A stretch of DNA of 64,000 nucleotides from Oscillospiraceae bacterium (GCA_015064095.1 SVSW01000001.1:709-64708); one strand, 5' to 3'; shown: positions 3,739 to 58,990, numbered from the stretch's first letter. A program made the numbers and translations. Notes: generated by a model not told the origin, from the letters alone.

Positions 3739-6141
3739 ATGAAACACGATTTTCGCAGCATCGAGCCGAAATGGCAGGACAGATGGGAAAAGGAAAAAGC
3801 CTTTGCCGCCGCCGATCATTCGGACAAGGAAAAATTCTATGCCCTCGTTGAGTTCCCGTACCCCTCGGGTGCCGGAATGCACGTCGGACATATCAAGGCT
3901 TATTCGGGTCTTGAGGTCGTTTCGCGCAAGCGCCGTATGCAGGGCTACAACGTGCTCTTCCCGATCGGCTTTGACGCTTTCGGTCTTCCCACCGAAAACT
4001 ACGCTATAAAGACCGGTATGCACCCCCGCACCGTCACGGACAAAAACATCGAAAAATTCAGCTCGCAGCTCCGTCGCGTCGGCTTCTCTTTTGACTGGGA
4101 TCGCGTGATCGACACTACTGAGGAGGACTATTACAAATGGACTCAGTGGATATTCCTCAAGCTTTTCGAGAAAGGACTTGCGTTCCGCGATAAAACTCTC
4201 GTAAATTACTGCCCCAACTGCAAGGTCGTTCTTTCAAACGAGGACTCTCAGGGCGGAAAATGCGATATTTGCCACTCCGACGTAGTCCAGAAATCAAAGG
4301 ACGTTTGGTATCTGCGCATCACCGAATACGCCGACAAGCTCCTCGAGGGGCTTGAAGAAGTCGATTATCTGCCGACCGTTAAGCAGCAGCAGATCAACTG
4401 GATCGGCAAGTCTACGGGTGCTTTCGTCAACTTCTCGCTCATCGGTGCTGATGAAACGCTCCGTATTTACACCACAAGGCCCGACACGCTTTTCGGCGTA
4501 ACGTTCATGGTCATGGCTCCCGAGCACCCGATACTCGACAAATATGCGGACAGGATCTCGAACATGGCAGACGTGCTTGCATATCGCACGGAGTGCGCAA
4601 AAAAGACAGAATTCGAGCGCACGCAGCTCGTCAAGGATAAGACCGGTGTGCGCATCGAGGGCATAACGGCGAAAAACCCCTTGACCGGCAAGGAAATCCC
4701 GATCTTTATTTCCGACTACGTTATGATGGGATACGGAACAGGTGCTATCATGGCAGTTCCGGCACACGATCAGCGCGACTTCGAGTTTGCAAAGAAATTC
4801 GGAATTGATATCATTGAGGTCATAAAGGGCGGCGATATTTCCGTCGAGGCCTATACCGGCGACGGCGAAATGGTCAACTCCGGCTTCCTCAACGGTTATA
4901 ATAACAAAAAAGACAGCATTGAACGCGCGGTCGAGGAGCTGACACGCCTCGGTTGCGGTGAGCGCGGCGTTCAGTACAAAATGAAGGACTGGGCATTCAA
5001 CCGTCAGCGTTATTGGGGCGAGCCGATCCCGATCGTTCACTGCCCGCACTGCGGAATGGTTCCCGTTCCCTATGACGAGCTTCCGCTTCGCCTACCTAAG
5101 GTTGAAAACTTCGAGCCCGGCTCGGACGGTGAGAGCCCGCTTGCAAAGATAGATTCGTTCGTCAACTGCAAGTGCCCCGTTTGCGGCAAGGACGCAAAGA
5201 GAGAAACGGACACGATGCCCCAGTGGGCAGGCAGCTCTTGGTATTTCTTGCGCTATATCGACCCGCATAACGATACCTGCCTCGCCGATCCCGAAAAGCT
5301 CAAATACTGGATGGCTGTTGACTGGTACAACGGCGGCATGGAGCACGTCACGCGCCACATGATATACTCGCGCTTCTGGTATCGCTTCCTTTACGATCTC
5401 GGCGTCGTTCCTGTTGCAGAACCGTATAAAAAACGCACAGCCCAAGGTCTTATACTCGGTCCTGACGGTGAAAAGATGTCAAAATCAAAAGGAAACGTCG
5501 TCGACCCGAATGCAGTTGTCGACGAATACGGTGCCGATGTTCTGCGCGTTTACACCCTCTTTATGGGTGATTACGAAAAGGCTGCTCCGTGGTCCGAAAA
5601 CTCCGTTCGCGGCTGCAAGCGATTCCTTGACCGCATAGCGGGTCTTACCGATCTTGCTTGTGGCAAGGGAGAGAGCCCTGCGATCACGAAGAATATCCAC
5701 AAGACATTGAAGAAGGTCTCCGACGATATCGAAAACATGAAGTTCAACACCGCGATCGCTGCGATGATGACACTTGTAAATGACATTTATGACGCAAAAG
5801 CTCTTACGAATGACGAGCTCGGAATCATCGTTCGTATGCTCTGCCCGTTCGCACCGCATATCTGCGAGGAGATCTGGGAGATGCTCGGAAATAAAACGCT
5901 CTGCTCGCTCTCCCCGTGGCCCGAATACGACGAGAAAAAGACCGTTGACGATACTGTCGAGGTCGCCGTTCAGGTTTGCGGCAAGCTCCGCGCAACGATC
6001 GAGCTTCCCGCCGACTGCGACAAGGATTTCGCTATCGCCGCCGCAAAGGCCGACGAGCGCGTTGCTCCCTTCATCGACGGCAAGACCTTAGTCAAGGAGA
6101 TCTATGTTCCCGGACGTATTGTCAACATCGTCGTAAGATAA
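3739..6141 (+). CDS. leuS: leucine--tRNA ligase
   Basis: 800 aa. HIGH region PYPSGAGMHVGH, KMSKS motif, and editing-domain length typical of bacterial LeuRS. AGGAGA RBS upstream. Confidence 0.97.
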   Translation: MKHDFRSIEPKWQDRWEKEKAFAAADHSDKEKFYALVEFPYPSGAGMHVGHIKAYSGLEVVSRKRRMQGYNVLFPIGFDAFGLPTENYAIKTGMHPRTVTDKNIEKFSSQLRRVGFSFDWDRVIDTTEEDYYKWTQWIFLKLFEKGLAFRDKTLVNYCPNCKVVLSNEDSQGGKCDICHSDVVQKSKDVWYLRITEYADKLLEGLEEVDYLPTVKQQQINWIGKSTGAFVNFSLIGADETLRIYTTRPDTLFGVTFMVMAPEHPILDKYADRISNMADVLAYRTECAKKTEFERTQLVKDKTGVRIEGITAKNPLTGKEIPIFISDYVMMGYGTGAIMAVPAHDQRDFEFAKKFGIDIIEVIKGGDISVEAYTGDGEMVNSGFLNGYNNKKDSIERAVEELTRLGCGERGVQYKMKDWAFNRQRYWGEPIPIVHCPHCGMVPVPYDELPLRLPKVENFEPGSDGESPLAKIDSFVNCKCPVCGKDAKRETDTMPQWAGSSWYFLRYIDPHNDTCLADPEKLKYWMAVDWYNGGMEHVTRHMIYSRFWYRFLYDLGVVPVAEPYKKRTAQGLILGPDGEKMSKSKGNVVDPNAVVDEYGADVLRVYTLFMGDYEKAAPWSENSVRGCKRFLDRIAGLTDLACGKGESPAITKNIHKTLKKVSDDIENMKFNTAIAAMMTLVNDIYDAKALTNDELGIIVRMLCPFAPHICEEIWEMLGNKTLCSLSPWPEYDEKKTVDDTVEVAVQVCGKLRATIELPADCDKDFAIAAAKADERVAPFIDGKTLVKEIYVPGRIVNIVVR

Positions 6142-25077: not shown

Positions 25078-25350
25078 GAAAAAGCCCTCCGCATCAAAAT
25101 TGATACAGAGGACGGATACACCGTGTTACCACCTCAATTCACCGCACTCTCACGGGTGCGGCCTCAAAGGGTACAAAAAATACCCCACCGCTTTAACGGG
25201 CGTACCCGTTGCCGCCTACTCGGATCTCTCCTTTCGGGGCACAGCTCACGAAATGTATTCGGCTACCGTCCACCTGCGATCTTTCACCGACCGATCGCTC
25301 TCTGCAAGGCTTTCCGATACCTACTTCTTCCCGGTCACAGCTTTTAATGG
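25078..25350 (-). promoter_or_regulatory. T-box leader RNA (tRNA-sensing riboswitch); specifier read as UAC (Tyr)
   Basis: All sequences below are minus-strand RNA.
- Stem I contains GCAGAGAGCGAUCGGUCGGUGAAAGAUCGC, which has the AG bulge and the GGUGAAA distal loop.
- The specifier loop reads GAA-UAC-A-UUUC (the codon is + strand 25255-25257).
- Stem III is GCCGCAC...GUGCGGU.
- The T-box sequence is AAUUGAGGUGGUAACACGG (+ strand 25121-25140).
- The terminator is GUCCUCUG...CGGAGGGC followed by UUUUU (25078-25113). Confidence 0.75.
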
Positions 25351-25997: not shown

Positions 25998-26071
25998 GCG
26001 GGTGTAGTTCAATGGTAGAATCCCAGCCTTCCAAGCTGGTCGTGTGGGTTCGATTCCCATCACCCGCTCCA
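25998..26071 (+). tRNA. tRNA-Gly (anticodon UCC)
   Basis: Hand-folded cloverleaf. Acceptor GCGGGTG/CACCCGC, anticodon stem CCAGC/GCTGG, loop CTTCCAA, T-loop TTCGATT, encoded CCA. Confidence 0.9.
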
Positions 26072-26092
26072 GATTGCCCGCCGCGTTTTTAT

Positions 26093-26169
<77 letters not shown>

Positions 26170-26177
26170 TATCGTAT

Positions 26178-26255
26178 GGTGAGCGTAGCTCAGTTGGTTA
26201 GAGCGCCAGGTTGTGGCCCTGGAGGCCGTGGGTTCGAATCCCATCGCCCACCCCA
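26178..26255 (+). tRNA. tRNA-His (anticodon GUG)
   Basis: Extra 5' G(-1), anticodon stem CCAGG/CCTGG, loop TTGTGGC, T-loop TTCGAAT, encoded CCA. Confidence 0.9.
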
Positions 26256-29948: not shown

Positions 29949-30035
29949 GCCGGAGTGGCGGAATTGGCAGACGCCAGGGACTTAAAATCCCTTGACATTC
30001 GTGTCGTACGGGTTCGAGCCCCGTTTCCGGCACCA
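29949..30035 (+). tRNA. tRNA-Leu (anticodon UAA)
   Basis: Class II tRNA with a long variable arm. Anticodon stem AGGGA/TCCCT, loop CTTAAAA, encoded CCA. Confidence 0.88.
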
Positions 30036-46867: not shown

Positions 46868-47548
46868 TCATTGGGAGCTTTTTCTTACTCTGAAAACCTT
46901 TAAAGTATCGCCGCTGACCTTAAATTCTATTTCGTACCCTGCGAACGGGAAACCGTATTCGCGCTCGGGGTCGTCCTGATACGAGGGGCGCGGATCCTGT
47001 GCGAGCACTTCAATTAAAGCCTCGCGCTTATCCTCCGGGATAAGCTCTATCAGCTCACTCGGAAAATCCACGCAAATTCCGTATCCGACGAGCGCATCGG
47101 CAAAGCCGCCTGCGGCGTCCTCATGGCTATCGGTATACGCAAGATATGGCTTGATATCGTATATCGGCGTGCCGTCCTTCATGTCGGCTCCGCTGACGGT
47201 CAGCACTGTGCCGCCCTCCGTTTTCACATCGAGCAGGCGAAGCGATGAAAGCCCCAGCCCGTTCGGGCGGAAGGGCGAGCGCGTGGCAAAAACGCCCATT
47301 CTTTTATTGCCGCCGAGCCGCGGCGGTCGAACGGTGAGCGCACCGCGGTATTTTGCCTCGGAAAATCCCCAAATGACCCAAATGTGCGAAAAATCCGAAA
47401 GTCCCCGAACAGCCTCGGGAGCTGAAAATTCAGGCTCAAAAACGATCTTCGCCACAAGCTTATCCGATATTCCGCTTTGGCGCGGAACACCGAATTTTTC
47501 GCCGAAATCCGTTCTTATATATGCTATCGGTCTTATCTCTTTATTCAT
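46868..47548 (-). CDS. trmO: tRNA (t6A37-N6)-methyltransferase TrmO (TsaA/YaeB family)
   Basis: IRPIAYIRTDFGEKFGVPRQSG, SHIWVIWGF and RSPFRPNGLG. Start taken at MNKEIRP. Confidence 0.8.
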   Translation of the reverse strand: MNKEIRPIAYIRTDFGEKFGVPRQSGISDKLVAKIVFEPEFSAPEAVRGLSDFSHIWVIWGFSEAKYRGALTVRPPRLGGNKRMGVFATRSPFRPNGLGLSSLRLLDVKTEGGTVLTVSGADMKDGTPIYDIKPYLAYTDSHEDAAGGFADALVGYGICVDFPSELIELIPEDKREALIEVLAQDPRPSYQDDPEREYGFPFAGYEIEFKVSGDTLKVFRVRKSSQ

Positions 47549-48230
47549 CGTCCGTATCATACTTATAATCCGAGTTCTCAAAGATCGTCCCAAAATCCGA
47601 CGGATCGCCTCTCAAATTTTGCGGTTCTTTTTTTCCGACAATGAAAATAATGATCGCCTGAGCAAGACTTATCAGTATTGAAAGGACCAAAAAGACCGTT
47701 GCGTTTTCAGGTGAAAAGATCTTATAAATGCACCAAAGCGCCATAAACATATGCACCATATAAACGATCGTTACGACAGAGAGCGCAATATCCGCCACCG
47801 TAAGGAGCAGCGACAGTGCCTCAACGATACCGCTTAAAGCTCCAAAAGCCGTAAGTATAAAAATAAGCGCGTAAAGTATCGTCGTTGCAAAGAATAAAGC
47901 AACCACGGCAACCGTCTCCCGAAGCAGCTTTCTGCCGTATCCCGAAGGCGCTTTTCCGTTATTGTACATATCCGCAAGCTCACCTGTCGCTTTTTGGCTA
48001 AAAAAAGGCACCCACGCGTGCCACGGGCGCGCGTATCCAACCTTTTTCAGCATTCGCATAAGCCCGATGCTCTGCAATATATACGCCGCCACGGCAACGC
48101 AAAAAGCTATTATGTAAGCGGCGGTCACAGCGCCGATAAAAAAGGCAATAAATACGTCAAAATAACCCTCAACGGGACTAAATATATTATCGTATCCTTC
48201 CTGAGTGATCAATCCAAGTAAAAAGTTCAT
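47541..48230 (-). CDS. hypothetical polytopic membrane protein
   Basis: About 229 aa with 5 hydrophobic segments and an acidic C-terminus. Start taken at the ATG (48230) 7 nt after GGAG. The longer ORF-track N-terminus is a translation of the repeated RNA element. Confidence 0.55.
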   Translation of the reverse strand: MNFLLGLITQEGYDNIFSPVEGYFDVFIAFFIGAVTAAYIIAFCVAVAAYILQSIGLMRMLKKVGYARPWHAWVPFFSQKATGELADMYNNGKAPSGYGRKLLRETVAVVALFFATTILYALIFILTAFGALSGIVEALSLLLTVADIALSVVTIVYMVHMFMALWCIYKIFSPENATVFLVLSILISLAQAIIIFIVGKKEPQNLRGDPSDFGTIFENSDYKYDTDDE

Positions 48231-48395
48231 GGTAATCTCCATTCCGCCGCCGGGGCGGCGCGAAAAATAGTTTTGAAAATTCAAATGTGTTCGATTTGCG
48301 AACAAAAACGGGTTCGTGGCCCGTTTTTAATTTGAATTTGGCAGCGTGAACAGTAAATAATCTACATAGACATATAATCTTTCACGCTAATCTCC
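48231..48395 (-). ncRNA. conserved structured 5'-UTR element, copy 1 (family unknown)
   Basis: About 90% identical by eye to 57471-57634 over the core. On the minus-strand RNA I see:
- Hairpin AGCGUGAA...UUCACGCU.
- A three-way junction with P1 AAAUUCAAAU/AUUUGAAUUU, P2 AAAAACGGG/CCCGUUUUU and P3 GUUCG/CGAAC.
- A GC hairpin, then GGAGAUUA, then the ATG. Confidence 0.6.
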
Positions 48396-48405
48396 TTTCA
48401 AAATT

Positions 48406-48434
48406 ATTATACTATTCCGCTGTATTTTTGTCAA
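48406..48434 (-). promoter_or_regulatory. sigmaA-type promoter driving element copy 1
   Basis: Minus strand: TTGACA, 17-nt spacer, TATAAT. The predicted TSS falls at the 5' edge of the element. Confidence 0.6.
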
Positions 48435-48437
48435 TAC

Positions 48438-48466
48438 GAATAAAATGCTCAAAAACGGGAAGAATT
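48438..48466 (+). promoter_or_regulatory. possible sigmaF-type promoter for spoIIR
   Basis: GAATA, 14-nt spacer, GGGAAGAATT. This resembles the forespore consensus GYATA-N14/15-GGnnAnAHTR as I recall it. Weak call. Confidence 0.3.
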
Positions 48467-48485
48467 GATTAGAAAGGAGATCGAC

Positions 48486-49082
48486 ATGAAAAAAATTGCA
48501 ATACTTTGTACCGTTATACTCATATCTTTTTCCCTGCTTTGGGTGCTCCCCGTTCACGGCGAGGACAAGATATACGACAGCGTGATCCGCCTGCACGTGC
48601 TTGCAAACTCCGACAGTGAGGAAGATCAAAGCATCAAGCTTTCGGTTCGCGACGAGGTGGCAAAGCTTACGGACGAGCTGACAGAAGGCTGCACCGATAT
48701 TGATACGGCAGAAGCCGTACTTCGCGAAAACCTCGGCAAGATAGAGGAATGTGCCAAAAAAAAGCTTGATGAGCTTGGCTGCTCTCTGCCCGTTCGCGTT
48801 GAGCTCGGACGCGAGAACTATCCCACAAAAAGCTATGAAAGCATCTGCTTCCCGGCGGGCAATTACCGTTCATTGCGCGTGATGATCGGCGAAGCCGAGG
48901 GACAAAACTGGTGGTGCGTGCTGTTCCCTCAGCTGTGTCTTGGCGCGGCGAGCGCAAAGCAAGCCGAGAACGCTTTTATAGAGGTCGGATTCACGCCCGA
49001 GCAATATAAAATAATAACAAAGACCGATGAACCGCAGTACAAGCTCCGCTTCAAGATACTTGAAGCTCTCGGAGGAAAATAA
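48486..49082 (+). CDS. spoIIR: stage II sporulation protein R
   Basis: Signal peptide, then IRLHVLANSDSEEDQ and NWWCVLFPQLC, both hallmark SpoIIR motifs. ATG follows AAAGGAG. Confidence 0.85.
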   Translation: MKKIAILCTVILISFSLLWVLPVHGEDKIYDSVIRLHVLANSDSEEDQSIKLSVRDEVAKLTDELTEGCTDIDTAEAVLRENLGKIEECAKKKLDELGCSLPVRVELGRENYPTKSYESICFPAGNYRSLRVMIGEAEGQNWWCVLFPQLCLGAASAKQAENAFIEVGFTPEQYKIITKTDEPQYKLRFKILEALGGK

Positions 49083-56890: not shown

Positions 56891-57276
56891 GTCAAATATA
56901 TAAGCTCCTGCACAACCTCGAGCAGGTCGTTTATCAGCGGCACGCAAAGAAGAAATATCTCGATCTTTCCCGCAAGCTCAACGCAAGAGGCAACCGTTGC
57001 CTCCCCTGAATCTCGGCAAACGGACGCGCACCCGTGACAAAGCAGAGCTACGCCGAAGCCCTTGAGGATCACGGCGGCGTATTTTGAGAATCCGACAGAG
57101 AGGGACAGCTCGTTCAAATATTCGATGGCAGGCCGTGCCGAGATCAAAAGCAAGGCGGCAAACACCATAAGCGCCGAGGCGCGCAGGGGAATCGAGAATC
57201 CCGCGCCGACCTGCTTTATTATCGCCGCCGCACCGATGACGATGAGCGCCACAGCGCAGATCTTTGCGCTGTCCAT
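56887..57276 (-). CDS. spoIIIAD: stage III sporulation protein AD
   Basis: 129 aa with four hydrophobic segments. The start overlaps the spoIIIAC stop (TAATG). Confidence 0.75.
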   Translation of the reverse strand: MDSAKICAVALIVIGAAAIIKQVGAGFSIPLRASALMVFAALLLISARPAIEYLNELSLSVGFSKYAAVILKGFGVALLCHGCASVCRDSGEATVASCVELAGKIEIFLLCVPLINDLLEVVQELIYLT

Positions 57277-57470
57277 TAAAGACCGAATACCGACCGCACG
57301 GTGGAGATCAGCTCGCCCATTTCCGACACGAGCATAAGCATAACTACAATGACACCGGCAACGGTCAAGAGCATTGCTTGCTCGTCCTTTCCCGATTTCA
57401 CCAGTATCTGCGAGGCAACGGCGACAAGCACCCCAACTCCTGCAACCTTTAATATAAGTCCTATATCCAT
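57276..57470 (-). CDS. spoIIIAC: stage III sporulation protein AC
   Basis: 64 aa: MDIGLILKVAGVGVLVAVASQILVKSGKDEQAMLLTVAGVIVVMLMLVSEMGELISTVRSVFGL. This is the typical SpoIIIAC size and pattern. Confidence 0.85.
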   Translation of the reverse strand: MDIGLILKVAGVGVLVAVASQILVKSGKDEQAMLLTVAGVIVVMLMLVSEMGELISTVRSVFGL

Positions 57471-57634
57471 AATAATCTCCATTCCGCCGATATAGCGGTG
57501 GCACAAATAATAATTGAAATTCAAATGTGTTCGCTTTGCGAACAAAAATGGGTTCGGGTCCCATTTTTAATTTGAATTTTGTAGCGTGAACCGTGAATTT
57601 TATTATAAACAAAATAAACTTTCACGCTAACTCC
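57471..57634 (-). ncRNA. conserved structured element, copy 2, filling the spoIIIAB-spoIIIAC intergenic gap
   Basis: Same architecture as 48231-48395. Here P2 is AAAAAUGGG/CCCAUUUUU, a compensatory change relative to copy 1. It starts at the spoIIIAB stop codon and ends at the spoIIIAC SD/ATG. Confidence 0.6.
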
Positions 57635-58110
57635 TATAAAAGCAATATAACAGCAAGCGCCGCCGCAGTCATGCAAAGCACGGTGTTCTTGCGCCTTTGT
57701 GCCTTTGATCTTTTCTTAAATTCCTCGTAAGCATCGCTAAGACGGTCAATATGATAATCACAATTCTTAACCTCGTCCTCCTTATATCCGGCTCCGAGCC
57801 GTGAAGAGAACGAAAGCAAAAGATCACGCGTTTCGCCATCGATCGGCGGCGAAAGTGAAGATAGGAAAGCGCTGAAATCCTCGGGCGTGATCTCACAGCC
57901 ACACTCCGAAAGAGTTTTCTTGTCGCACCTTCGGAATATCTCGCCAACGGGCACGCAATAGCAGTCTATCTGCGTTCTTATAAACCGCAAAAGCGATATC
58001 AACGCCGAAAGCTGTGTGTCTTTTTGCGTTTCGCGGCTGTTGAGGATCACAGACGCAAAAGCACCTCCGGCAAGTATAAGCGCGGCGCCGAAAAGCTTAT
58101 AGCTCATCAT
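57634..58110 (-). CDS. spoIIIAB: stage III sporulation protein AB
   Basis: About 158 aa. N-terminal TM segment (YKLFGAALILAGGAF), then LISLLRFIRTQIDCY, then a C-terminal TM segment. Start taken at MMSYK, overlapping the end of spoIIIAA. Confidence 0.75.
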   Translation of the reverse strand: MMSYKLFGAALILAGGAFASVILNSRETQKDTQLSALISLLRFIRTQIDCYCVPVGEIFRRCDKKTLSECGCEITPEDFSAFLSSLSPPIDGETRDLLLSFSSRLGAGYKEDEVKNCDYHIDRLSDAYEEFKKRSKAQRRKNTVLCMTAAALAVILLL

Positions 58111-58990
58111 CAAACGTATAAAGATAATCGTCGCCCGACCTGCGTATACCCACAAAATGCGAAAATATTCCCTTTTCTGCAAGCATGGCGATCCCCTTCT
58201 TATTTCTCAGCTCCGACTTGTTTCTTGCGTGCGCGGTCGCGAGCAAAGCAACGCCGCAGTTGTGCGCCGCCGCGACCGCGCACGCTTCCTCTGTATCAGC
58301 ACCGATCTCATCACAAACTATAAGCTCAGGCGATAGTGTGCGCGCGGCAAGCTCGATGCCAAGACCGCGGGGATAGCCCGAAAGCAGGTCTACCGTAAGA
58401 TTTTCCGGCAGGAAGCAGGAAAGTTCACCGCGCGTGTCGATCACCGCGGTTCTTACAGGTCTCTCGCCACCCGCAACATCTGAAATTATAGCGCGGAGAA
58501 GCGTCGTTTTCCCCTCTCCCGGCAAAGAATATACAAGCACACCGGAGAAAAATCCCGTTGATCTCAAAAGTTCTGCGACAGGCTTTCCGACGTGCGGAGC
58601 TCGGTGAGGTATTCTTATTGCCAGCGAGAAAACGTCATAAACCCCAACTATCCTTTGCCCCTCGGTCACAGCCCGCCCGCATATGCCGACACGCACACCG
58701 TTAGGCATTATTATGTATCCTCGGTTTATCGTGTCGCTGTAAGCGTAAAGCGATCCGCCGCACATTCTTTTAACAGTTTCGTCCATCTCGCGACGCGAAA
58801 GCTTATATTTTAAAATTATATTTTTTCGGTCTGAGGTCAAAGAGCACGCTCCGCCACATCGCAGGCGTATCTCCTCGACTCTTGCAATACGGCAAGCGGA
58901 TATCTCCGCCGCGAGCACTGTCGGCAAATACGAGAGTATCCCGGTATCAAGTGCCGCATCGTACACGCGATCATATAACTTCGTTTGCAT
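58097..58990 (-). CDS. spoIIIAA: stage III sporulation protein AA (ATPase)
   Basis: 297 aa. Walker A PGEGKTTLLR and Walker-B-like LIVCDEIG. First gene of the cluster. Confidence 0.85.
   Translation of the reverse strand: MQTKLYDRVYDAALDTGILSYLPTVLAAEISACRIARVEEIRLRCGGACSLTSDRKNIILKYKLSRREMDETVKRMCGGSLYAYSDTINRGYIIMPNGVRVGICGRAVTEGQRIVGVYDVFSLAIRIPHRAPHVGKPVAELLRSTGFFSGVLVYSLPGEGKTTLLRAIISDVAGGERPVRTAVIDTRGELSCFLPENLTVDLLSGYPRGLGIELAARTLSPELIVCDEIGADTEEACAVAAAHNCGVALLATAHARNKSELRNKKGIAMLAEKGIFSHFVGIRRSGDDYLYTFDDEL

Follow-up and report, generated by a model that had tools for sequence, protein, structure and literature searches.

A dispersed miniature element with IS110-family ends in the spoIIIAB-spoIIIAC gap of an Oscillospiraceae bacterium

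The spoIIIA sporulation operon lies on the minus strand of a 64,000-nucleotide (nt) stretch of DNA from an Oscillospiraceae bacterium (GCA_015064095.1, SVSW01000001.1:709-64708), hereafter the window, and one of its gene junctions holds the small structured element that is the subject of this work. The longest open reading frame (ORF) of spoIIIAB (57634..58182; Pfam Spore_III_AB, 3.1e-17) ends in a TAG stop codon at 57636-57634, and spoIIIAC (57276..57470; 64 amino acids (aa); Pfam SpoIIIAC, 6.7e-16) starts with the ATG at 57470-57468. On this strand, 163 nt separate the stop codon from the start codon, in good agreement with the gap of about 165 nt given in the original prediction, which had been made from the sequence alone. 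Its statement that the operon is otherwise tightly packed also held, as the other junctions overlap or measure 1-11 nt, with about 72 nt between spoIIIAG and spoIIIAH, on the metagenomic contig L027, which is identical to the window.

The gap is occupied by a 155-nt element, copy A, which runs from TAGCGTGAAAG to AATGGAGAT (57475..57629, minus strand) and reaches 176 bits with the covariance model R1. Directly 5' of it stands a GGAG (57631..57634, minus strand) that overlaps the spoIIIAB stop codon and is presumably the original Shine-Dalgarno (SD) sequence of spoIIIAC, moved about 160 nt upstream by copy A. The element opens with hairpin 1 (57583..57628, minus strand), whose basal stem AGCGUGAA/UUCACGCU is conserved while its distal part of about 30 nt is variable; the first 11 nt of this hairpin are the left terminus, which is common to the full-length insertion sequence (IS) described below. 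It is followed by a three-way junction (57517..57579, minus strand) composed of P1 AAAUUCAAAU/AUUUGAAUUU, P2 AAAAAUGGG/CCCAUUUUU and P3 GUUCGC/GCGAAC, which the full-length IS does not contain and which is referred to as cargo. The right-end module (57475..57516, minus strand) consists of an AU-rich linker (..TATTTGTG), a GC hairpin (57502-57484), AAT and an element-borne SD, GGAGAT (57480-57475), with the spoIIIAC ATG following 4 nt 3' of the latter. This module is homologous to the outer end of an IS of the IS110 family (alignment A7).

The four parts that had been folded by hand in the original prediction were recovered by RNAfold, namely the hairpin AGCGUGAA/UUCACGCU with a long AU-rich interior, the three-way junction with helices of 10 bp (P1), 9 bp (P2) and 6 bp (P3), the GC hairpin, and GGAGAUUA left unpaired ahead of the AUG. 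The minimum free energy of copy A was -46.9 kcal/mol (z = -4.5), none of 200 shuffled sequences folded as well, and the second copy in the window, copy B, reached z = -3.6. The fold consists of three local modules that are independent of one another, instead of a single end-to-end hairpin, and the three-way junction is compact, with 0-2 unpaired nt per strand and nearly no conserved unpaired nucleotides. Between copies A and B, a compensatory U-A to C-G change was found in P2. When 26 copies were aligned to the model, 98% of the cells were standard pairs, compared with 37-47% when the partners were slid. At least one double change occurred in 21 of the 37 pairs; the double changes come mostly from a single divergent variant (L033), and the alignment was fitted to the model itself. 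Hairpin 1 shows compensatory changes from U-A to C-G in locus L025 and from A-U to G-C in L033, and the GC hairpin several C-G to U-A changes. Overall, the stems are near-invariant and the loops vary freely, compensatory changes are found in each helix, and the distal stems of hairpin 1 differ in sequence among copies with pairing kept. The three-way junction is missing in copies L001b and L008b, and P2 is missing in L005b. Because copies without the junction or without P2 still precede genes, the three-way junction is dispensable. On the antisense strand, the P2 hairpin is terminator-like, with a stem followed by TTTTT (plus strand 57544-57568 and 48304-48328); it looks like a weak terminator, through which the element could stop antisense transcription.

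The near-identical second element expected from the original prediction was confirmed. Copy B (48235..48389, minus strand, 155 nt) scores 166 bits with the covariance model, and an alignment of the two copies with their flanks, 191 columns long, shows 85% identity, the copy-B match in it spanning 48228-48395. With 0.03 occurrences expected, a core 20-mer is found in the window exactly two times, and the window holds just these two copies. Copy B is located between a perfect sigma-A-type promoter, TTGACA-17-TATAAT (48406..48434, minus strand, 12/12 matches), and the ATG (48230) of a membrane-protein gene (47541-48230) to which no Pfam family was assigned. The promoter is host sequence outside the element, as a homologue of it is present at the empty site in L037. 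On its other side it is adjoined by the divergently oriented spoIIR (48465-49082, plus strand).

Orthologous spoIIIAB-spoIIIAC junctions were reached via proteins homologous to SpoIIIAC and the contigs encoding them; a metagenome locus search yielded no locus with SpoIIIAC as the query and two uninformative loci with SpoIIIAA. The junction is filled in the window, L027 and L028, where SpoIIIAC is 100% identical, and it is filled by a variant element in L033 (L033:1040-1203; SpoIIIAC 92% identical). It is empty in L031/L032 (94% identical; ...TTTAAGAGAAACGGAGATCTTATG), L034/L035 (92%; ...TTATTATGAGGAATTTTATG) and L036 (86%; ...TTTGATTGGAGAAGGTATG), where the genes are 11-16 nt apart or overlap. 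Three lineages are thus empty and two are filled. The L033 variant has the base of hairpin 1 and the right module as in copy A, and the architecture of its three-way junction is kept with a wholly different sequence and swapped lengths of P2 and P3; it represents either an independent insertion or a module exchange. The site of copy B on the spoIIR side is empty in L037, with the TTGACA-17-TATAAT promoter kept and an SD and ATG directly after it, and a third pair is given by the mutS2-like/lrp junction, which is filled in L016 and empty in L013. Since close relatives have empty sites both between spoIIIAB and spoIIIAC and on the spoIIR side, the element is an insertion. Scarless excision would explain the empty sites in close relatives as readily as independent insertion.

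When GTDB representative genomes were scanned for an exact pattern, 26 loci came out, spread over about 9 Clostridia metagenome-assembled genomes (MAGs), and further divergent and partial copies were found within the same loci by nhmmer and the covariance model. At least 28 copies are present in about 9 gut Clostridia MAGs, with up to 11 loci in one goat-colon MAG, some of them as head-to-tail arrays. The order of modules starts with the left terminus TAGCGTGAA, a variable stretch of about 30 nt and (T/A)TCACGC, which together make up hairpin 1, and continues with the three-way junction, the AU-rich linker ending in TATTTGTG, the GC hairpin and AAT-GGAGAT-TAnn-ATG. From the GTG of the element to the downstream ATG, the distance is 147-160 nt. 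In nearly all copies that are not internal to an array, 5-7 nt separate the end of the element from the ATG of a gene in the same orientation (GGAG-N5-7-ATG), the exceptions to the GGAGAT-ATG ending being L007, L015 and L025 with diverged 3' ends. The genes downstream are functionally unrelated and code for HflX, LeuS, PurC, a radical-SAM activase, Lrp/AsnC, an ABC-2 permease, a HAD hydrolase, an FtsH-like protease and lipoproteins. Rather than lying in random orientations and contexts with no covariation, which the original prediction had associated with a plain MITE (miniature inverted-repeat transposable element), the copies are strict in their orientation and position at start codons, and their helices carry compensatory changes. 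Copy B and L007 directly follow promoters.

Most of the small copies have an SD-like motif 1-3 nt before the left terminus, giving a 5' flank of the form GGAG(N1-3)TAGCGUG. Terminal inverted repeats (TIRs) were not found, as the two ends of the element are not reverse complements of each other. Neither was a target-site duplication beyond GGAG, as the similarity of 5' flank and 3' end was no greater within copies than between copies (p = 0.10). A leader peptide or translational coupling starting from the SD and GTG at the 5' end was considered and rejected on finding that the ORFs vary in frame and in length (2-51 codons); because the ORF from its GTG is conserved in neither, the element is non-coding. 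Head-to-tail arrays of two or more units occur in L004, L014, L001, L005, L008 and L018 (MAG RGIG2161). Their units are joined by GGCGGAAT-ATAAGATGGA-TAGCGTG and not by a GGAGAT junction, and the last unit alone carries an SD and an ATG.

The small element had no blastn match in plasmids and phages, and its three-way-junction pattern had none in viral contigs. When the viral contigs were scanned for the right module (GC hairpin plus AATGGAG), the module was found directly before an ATG in seven loci. In L048 and L041, it forms the outermost end of a unit of about 1.67 kb (L048:9495-11167); over 1691 nt the units share 82.6% identity, which ends at the ATG. The opposite strand of the unit codes for a 424-aa protein with DEDD_Tnp_IS110 (6.8e-22) and Transposase_20 (9.5e-20) domains, and the other end of the unit reads TAGTGTGAAAG. 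Ten more copies of this IS were reached through the transposase (L041, L048, L051-L058 and L061 are viral contigs). Homologues of the transposase number more than 7,900 at E <= 1e-60, and those named 'IS110 family transposase' are found in Hungatella, Eisenbergiella, Anaerobutyricum and Anaerocolumna. The IS has the left terminus TAGTGTGAAAG, or TAGCGTGAAAA in L057 and L061, which belong to lineages of 70-73% identity, and a right end of the form ...TTTCATnACTATTTGTG, GC hairpin, AATGGAGAT and then the TnnTATG of a gene.

Small elements and IS have in common about 45 nt on the right (TATTTGTG, GC hairpin, AATGGAGAT) and 10-11 nt on the left (alignments A7 and A8), where TAGYGTGAAA(G/A) is invariant in the small elements and 9 IS copies. 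The unit of the IS always lies just before a start codon, and the right ends of both kinds of element agree in reading GGAGAT-TnnN-ATG of a co-oriented gene. The agreement on the left side is partial: compared with most of the small copies, a clear host SD is found in 3 of the 9 full-length copies (GGAGGttt, GGAGttt and GGGAGat abutting the terminus), several of the remaining left flanks are merely purine-rich, and two are without any SD-like motif. The right module is identical at different loci (L051/L056 and L052/L053) and diverges in step with the transposase lineage, including compensatory changes in the GC stem (CCGCGG in L055 and L058). Its constancy at unrelated loci and its divergence along with the transposase thus assign the right module to the IS itself and not to a pre-existing target.

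At three loci (L047:455-790 (minus strand), L039 and L043), a solo non-coding end of the IS of about 280 nt, the putative bridge-RNA region, is found together with the right module, and the transposase is absent. These solo ends come immediately after a small zinc-ribbon ORF, with another gene following them, and represent either truncated IS copies or a stand-alone guide-RNA locus.

Between the ATG of the transposase and the right module, the IS has a non-coding end of about 300 nt, which had no match in Rfam. Read in the sense of the gene, it contains ACACTG-[ATTnnTATG]-CTGTC, and in each copy the bracketed 9-mer was compared with the right junction, namely the 9 nt on the 3' side of GGAG. 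Both sequences are ATTAGTATG in L051 and L056, ATTTATATG in L052 and L053, ATTAATATG in L054, and ATTTTTATG in L055 and L058. In the other two copies, 8 of 9 positions match, L057 having GTTAAAATA in the non-coding end and GTTAAAATG at the junction, and the solo end L047 having ATTAGTATG and ATTATTATG, respectively. The 9-mer is therefore equal to the junction in 7 of 9 copies, with four covarying variants. On the transposase strand, RNAalifold predicts two stems separated by an internal loop, and the unpaired 9-mer lies on one side of this loop. The non-coding end of IS110 elements is known to encode a bridge RNA, or seek RNA, that is active in trans (PMC11208160) and whose loops base-pair with target and donor (PMC11208160, PMC11187229, PMC12288879). 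The 9-mer looks like such a bridge-RNA guide aimed at translation start regions, and we infer a bridge RNA of this IS from the covariation without claiming its full fold. A second motif of the non-coding end, TTAGYGT, covaries with the left terminus (TAGTGTG versus TAGCGTG), but RNAalifold places it in a stem, and it was not claimed as a donor guide. Within the small element itself, no segment matches its own junction better than the junctions of others (permutation p = 0.28).

Taken together, we consider it probable, at roughly three chances in four, that the element derives from an IS110-family element as a non-autonomous, MITE-like form mobilised in trans, with a structured cargo of hairpin and three-way junction and a regenerated SD. 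The evidence in hand comprises the dispersal in multiple copies, the fixed position and orientation at start codons, the site polymorphism, the termini shared with the IS, and the 9-mer of the IS. Having no TIRs and the ends of an IS110-family element, it would fall into the IS110-type non-autonomous class and not among MITEs of the BOX/RUP type. The original prediction had offered a BOX/RUP-like mobile element with its own SD as one alternative; mobility, multiple copies and the supply of an SD stood, and the assignment to that class did not.

IS110 elements in general have no TIRs, integrate at specific sequences and are excised without a scar (PMC11208160), and mini-IS with intact ends move when transposase and seekRNA are given in trans (PMC11187229). 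The 155-nt element has neither a recombinase gene nor a bridge-RNA or guide region of its own. It would have kept the IS ends, TAGYGTGAAAG on the left and about 45 nt on the right (TATTTGTG, GC hairpin, AATGGAGAT), with the structured cargo replacing the transposase and bridge-RNA region between them. Recombinase and bridge RNA would come in trans from a full-length relative located on a phage or at another place in the genome, and the bridge RNA would direct insertion in one orientation between the SD and the start codon of a gene. The crossover probably takes place at T/TA after GGAGAT, and the junction of the excised circle would be expected to read ...GGAATGGAGAT-TAGCGTG.... The right end AAUGGAGAU would put a new SD at the native distance from the ATG, and the displaced host SD would persist as a relic beside the GUG of the element. 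Because the right end itself is AAUGGAGAU, spoIIIAC and the membrane-protein gene at 48230 should stay translatable and the insertion should be tolerated. Any effect of the element on the expression of spoIIIAC-AH is a matter of conjecture.

Several observations weigh against this explanation. In a tblastn search, the IS110 transposase was absent from the 64-kb window and from 37 chromosomal loci, which are small parts of their genomes. The full-length IS copies all come from viral contigs and the named relatives are Lachnospiraceae, while the window belongs to a Ruminococcaceae MAG, so that a parent in the same genome is putative. At the left end, homology covers just 10-11 nt, or about 20 nt when L061 is compared with subfamily 2. 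The junction spacers vary among small copies even in one MAG (TAAT, TGTT and AAAG before the ATG); they are looser than the perfect guide match of the full-length copies and than a single guide predicts. The array junction GGAAT-ATAAGATGGA-TAGCGTG is not what would be expected from simple insertion into the SD of a resident element. Finally, the cargo helices are structurally constrained, for which the mobile-element model itself gives no reason.

An alternative is a domesticated or exapted leader, in which the structured RNA arrived by the IS110 route and now acts in cis on the host mRNA, by breaking the translational coupling of spoIIIAB and spoIIIAC, as a 5' stabiliser after processing, by partial termination at P2 and its U-tract, or by blocking antisense transcription. 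It would add a function to the mobile-element explanation, not replace it, and we regard it as rather unlikely, though worth keeping in mind. It would account for near-invariant stems beside variable loops and for the excess of standard pairs over slid pairings with compensatory changes in each helix, although the compensatory counts derive mostly from one divergent sequence aligned by the model itself. The distal stems of hairpin 1, which pair despite their different sequences, and the three-way junction of L033, kept with another sequence, point in the same direction, as do the terminator-like P2 on the antisense strand and the promoters ahead of copy B and L007, which would place hairpin 1 near the mRNA 5' end. 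However, the cargo is dispensable, given that copies without the three-way junction or P2 still precede genes, sister species lack the insert, and the element-borne SD has a predicted accessibility of 0.34 compared with 0.35 for the body of the element. With these same unpaired probabilities, the GC hairpin was also rejected as a device for an insulated, accessible SD. A cargo of hairpin and three-way junction that is a functional RNA and not filler, made wherever the dozens of unrelated genes behind it are transcribed, appears improbable. A gene-specific cis-regulatory RNA, such as a riboswitch, ribozyme or protein-binding leader controlling spoIIIAC-AH in sporulation, would fit the stable fold (z = -4.5) immediately upstream of an SD and the position of copy B in a sporulation neighbourhood beside spoIIR. 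Yet the same element precedes housekeeping genes of unrelated function and is absent from the spoIIIAB-spoIIIAC junction of close relatives (SpoIIIAC 86-94% identical), so that the tuning of spoIIIAC-AH suggested in the original prediction found no support. Moreover, the compact junction offers nearly no unpaired conserved nucleotides for a ligand pocket or catalytic core, and Rfam 15 gave nothing for either copy at gathering thresholds and nothing credible at E <= 10 (best E >= 0.6, with scores well under the gathering cut-offs), consistent with the earlier remark that no riboswitch or ribozyme family could be recognised. We consider a gene-specific RNA extremely unlikely.

The relationship could also be reversed, with the small repeat being an older host repeat of the REP/BIME kind that was targeted by an IS110-family element, the shared termini then being fragments of a split repeat. 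Targeting of repeats is known for IS110 elements, as IS621 and ISPpu9 target REPs (PMC11208160, PMC12288879), and the left terminus joined to the start of the right module forms a palindrome, TGAAAG-CTTTCA. Against this, the right module changes along with the lineage of the transposase, has the same sequence at unrelated loci and shows compensatory changes in the GC stem, and the 9-mer matches sequence beyond the module, at the ATG, and not an internal boundary. An unsplit TAGYGTGAAAG-CTTTCAT repeat was not noticed in the sequences read, for which no dedicated search was run. We judge a pre-existing host repeat to be very unlikely. Other identities were dropped as well. A hammerhead or other three-way-junction ribozyme does not agree on inspection with 0-2 unpaired nt per strand and no conserved core, and a TIR-type MITE (RUP, Correia, BOX-like) disagrees with the lack of TIRs and with three local modules in place of one long hairpin. 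REP/BIME, whose palindromic units measure 20-40 nt and lie mainly downstream of genes with alternating orientation, was rejected for a 155-nt composite that is always upstream of a start codon and always co-oriented, and the mechanisms of IS200/IS605, integron attC and IS91 type, considered from the hairpins, were dropped after the IS110 parent had been found.

For comparison with known systems, MITEPpu9 of Pseudomonas putida is a MITE-like element associated with the IS110-family ISPpu9 and carries a small RNA (sRNA) as cargo (PMC12288879). Like the element described here, it is multi-copy, has a small structured RNA cargo and is a proposed hitch-hiker on IS machinery; unlike it, MITEPpu9 is located in REP sequences, and its sRNA gene ssr9 is complementary to an antisense RNA of the IS (PMC12288879). 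The position of the present element is between SD and ATG; it restores the SD, is transcribed together with host genes, has no recognised partner for its cargo and comes from another phylum. IS621, ISEc11 and other IS110/IS1111 elements resemble the IS found here in the combination of DEDD and Transposase_20 domains with a long non-coding end upstream of tnp, in the lack of TIRs, in guide segments, which match target and donor in those elements, and in the mobility of ends-only constructs in trans, which is proposed for the small element here (PMC11208160, PMC11187229). In contrast, these elements insert into repeats (REP or others) with a CT core, whereas an SD-spacer-ATG target with a probable T/TA crossover is inferred here. 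A similar target is known from the IS110-family element IS900, found in the Mycobacterium avium complex. Its motif, CATGN6TCTCCTT, equals AAGGAGA-N6-CATG, that is SD-N6-CATG, and spans both SD and start codon (PMC8141618). IS900-type elements differ in being full-length, autonomous IS of actinobacteria, and they have no sequence similarity to the element here. IS901 and IS902 behave like IS900, and these elements insert in one orientation. We know of no IS900-type element with a replacement-SD end or a swarm of miniature derivatives.

The classical small repeats BOX, RUP, Correia, ERIC and REP/BIME are similar in being 100-200 nt long or modular, in being transcribed with their neighbours, and in their stable folds and optional modules. 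However, RUP and Correia have TIRs and TA-type duplications, REPs are short GC palindromes that follow genes at their 3' ends, and none of these families is tied to the SD-ATG interval or has the ends of an IS110 element. The MIRUs of Mycobacterium tuberculosis are intercistronic operon repeats that, as here, are co-oriented with the genes and preserve the flanking translation signals. They consist of tandem units of 40-100 bp with small ORFs overlapping the neighbouring stop and start codons, whereas the ORF from the GTG of the present element is not conserved.

With regard to the spoIIIA operon, the odd gap of 163 nt in a tightly packed sporulation operon can be accounted for without any new riboswitch, and the interest for sporulation biology is limited unless the cargo is functional. 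Among uncultured gut Clostridia, the interval between SD and start codon appears to be a natural target of an IS110-type (bridge-RNA) system, which is accompanied by a swarm of miniature derivatives that are apparently harmless through bringing their own SD. For the bridge-recombinase field, this could offer a natural set of guide variants targeting translation start regions, in the form of the four covarying 9-mers, and a natural case of minimal cis requirements, with about 11 nt at one end. If the cargo were functional, a single post-transcriptional controller could act on many housekeeping and sporulation genes through one protein or sRNA that all copies share as a partner at the GC hairpin and SD, or the cargo could talk back to the IS110 recombinase and bridge-RNA system as a decoy or regulator of transposition, in analogy to Ssr9. 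Bridge-RNA-guided insertion at ribosome-binding sites would then offer a natural way of rewiring translation initiation genome-wide.

For annotators, the element would explain false N-terminal extensions of the MEIxM... kind, as well as intergenic repeats in these MAGs that had no explanation. The database SpoIIIAC entries P0002 and P0004, which are 100% and 98% identical to the protein of the window, have 68 aa instead of 64. It is likely that gene callers started at the ATG inside AATGGAG of the element (MEIIM...), which would make the extra length an artefact of annotation due to the element. A 68-aa call is an unreliable marker of the element, as the one in L034 (P0008) stems from a host ATG at an empty site.

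A variant with the same right module and other upstream hairpins was observed on a phage-like contig (L044:9511-9695), between a 581-aa ORF without Pfam match and the next gene; this contig also has a GP20-b RNA motif at 308-367 (39.9 bits). The leuS gene of the MAG L003 has the element, whereas leuS of the window (3739-5547, plus strand) lacks it and shows a normal short SD-ATG region (GACAGGAGATAATTATG); this is a further contrast between presence and absence, although the two LeuS proteins are only 61% identical. Elsewhere in the window, a T-box leader (116 bits) and four tRNA genes were located at 25105-25347 (minus strand), 25998-26252 (plus strand) and 29949-30032 (plus strand).

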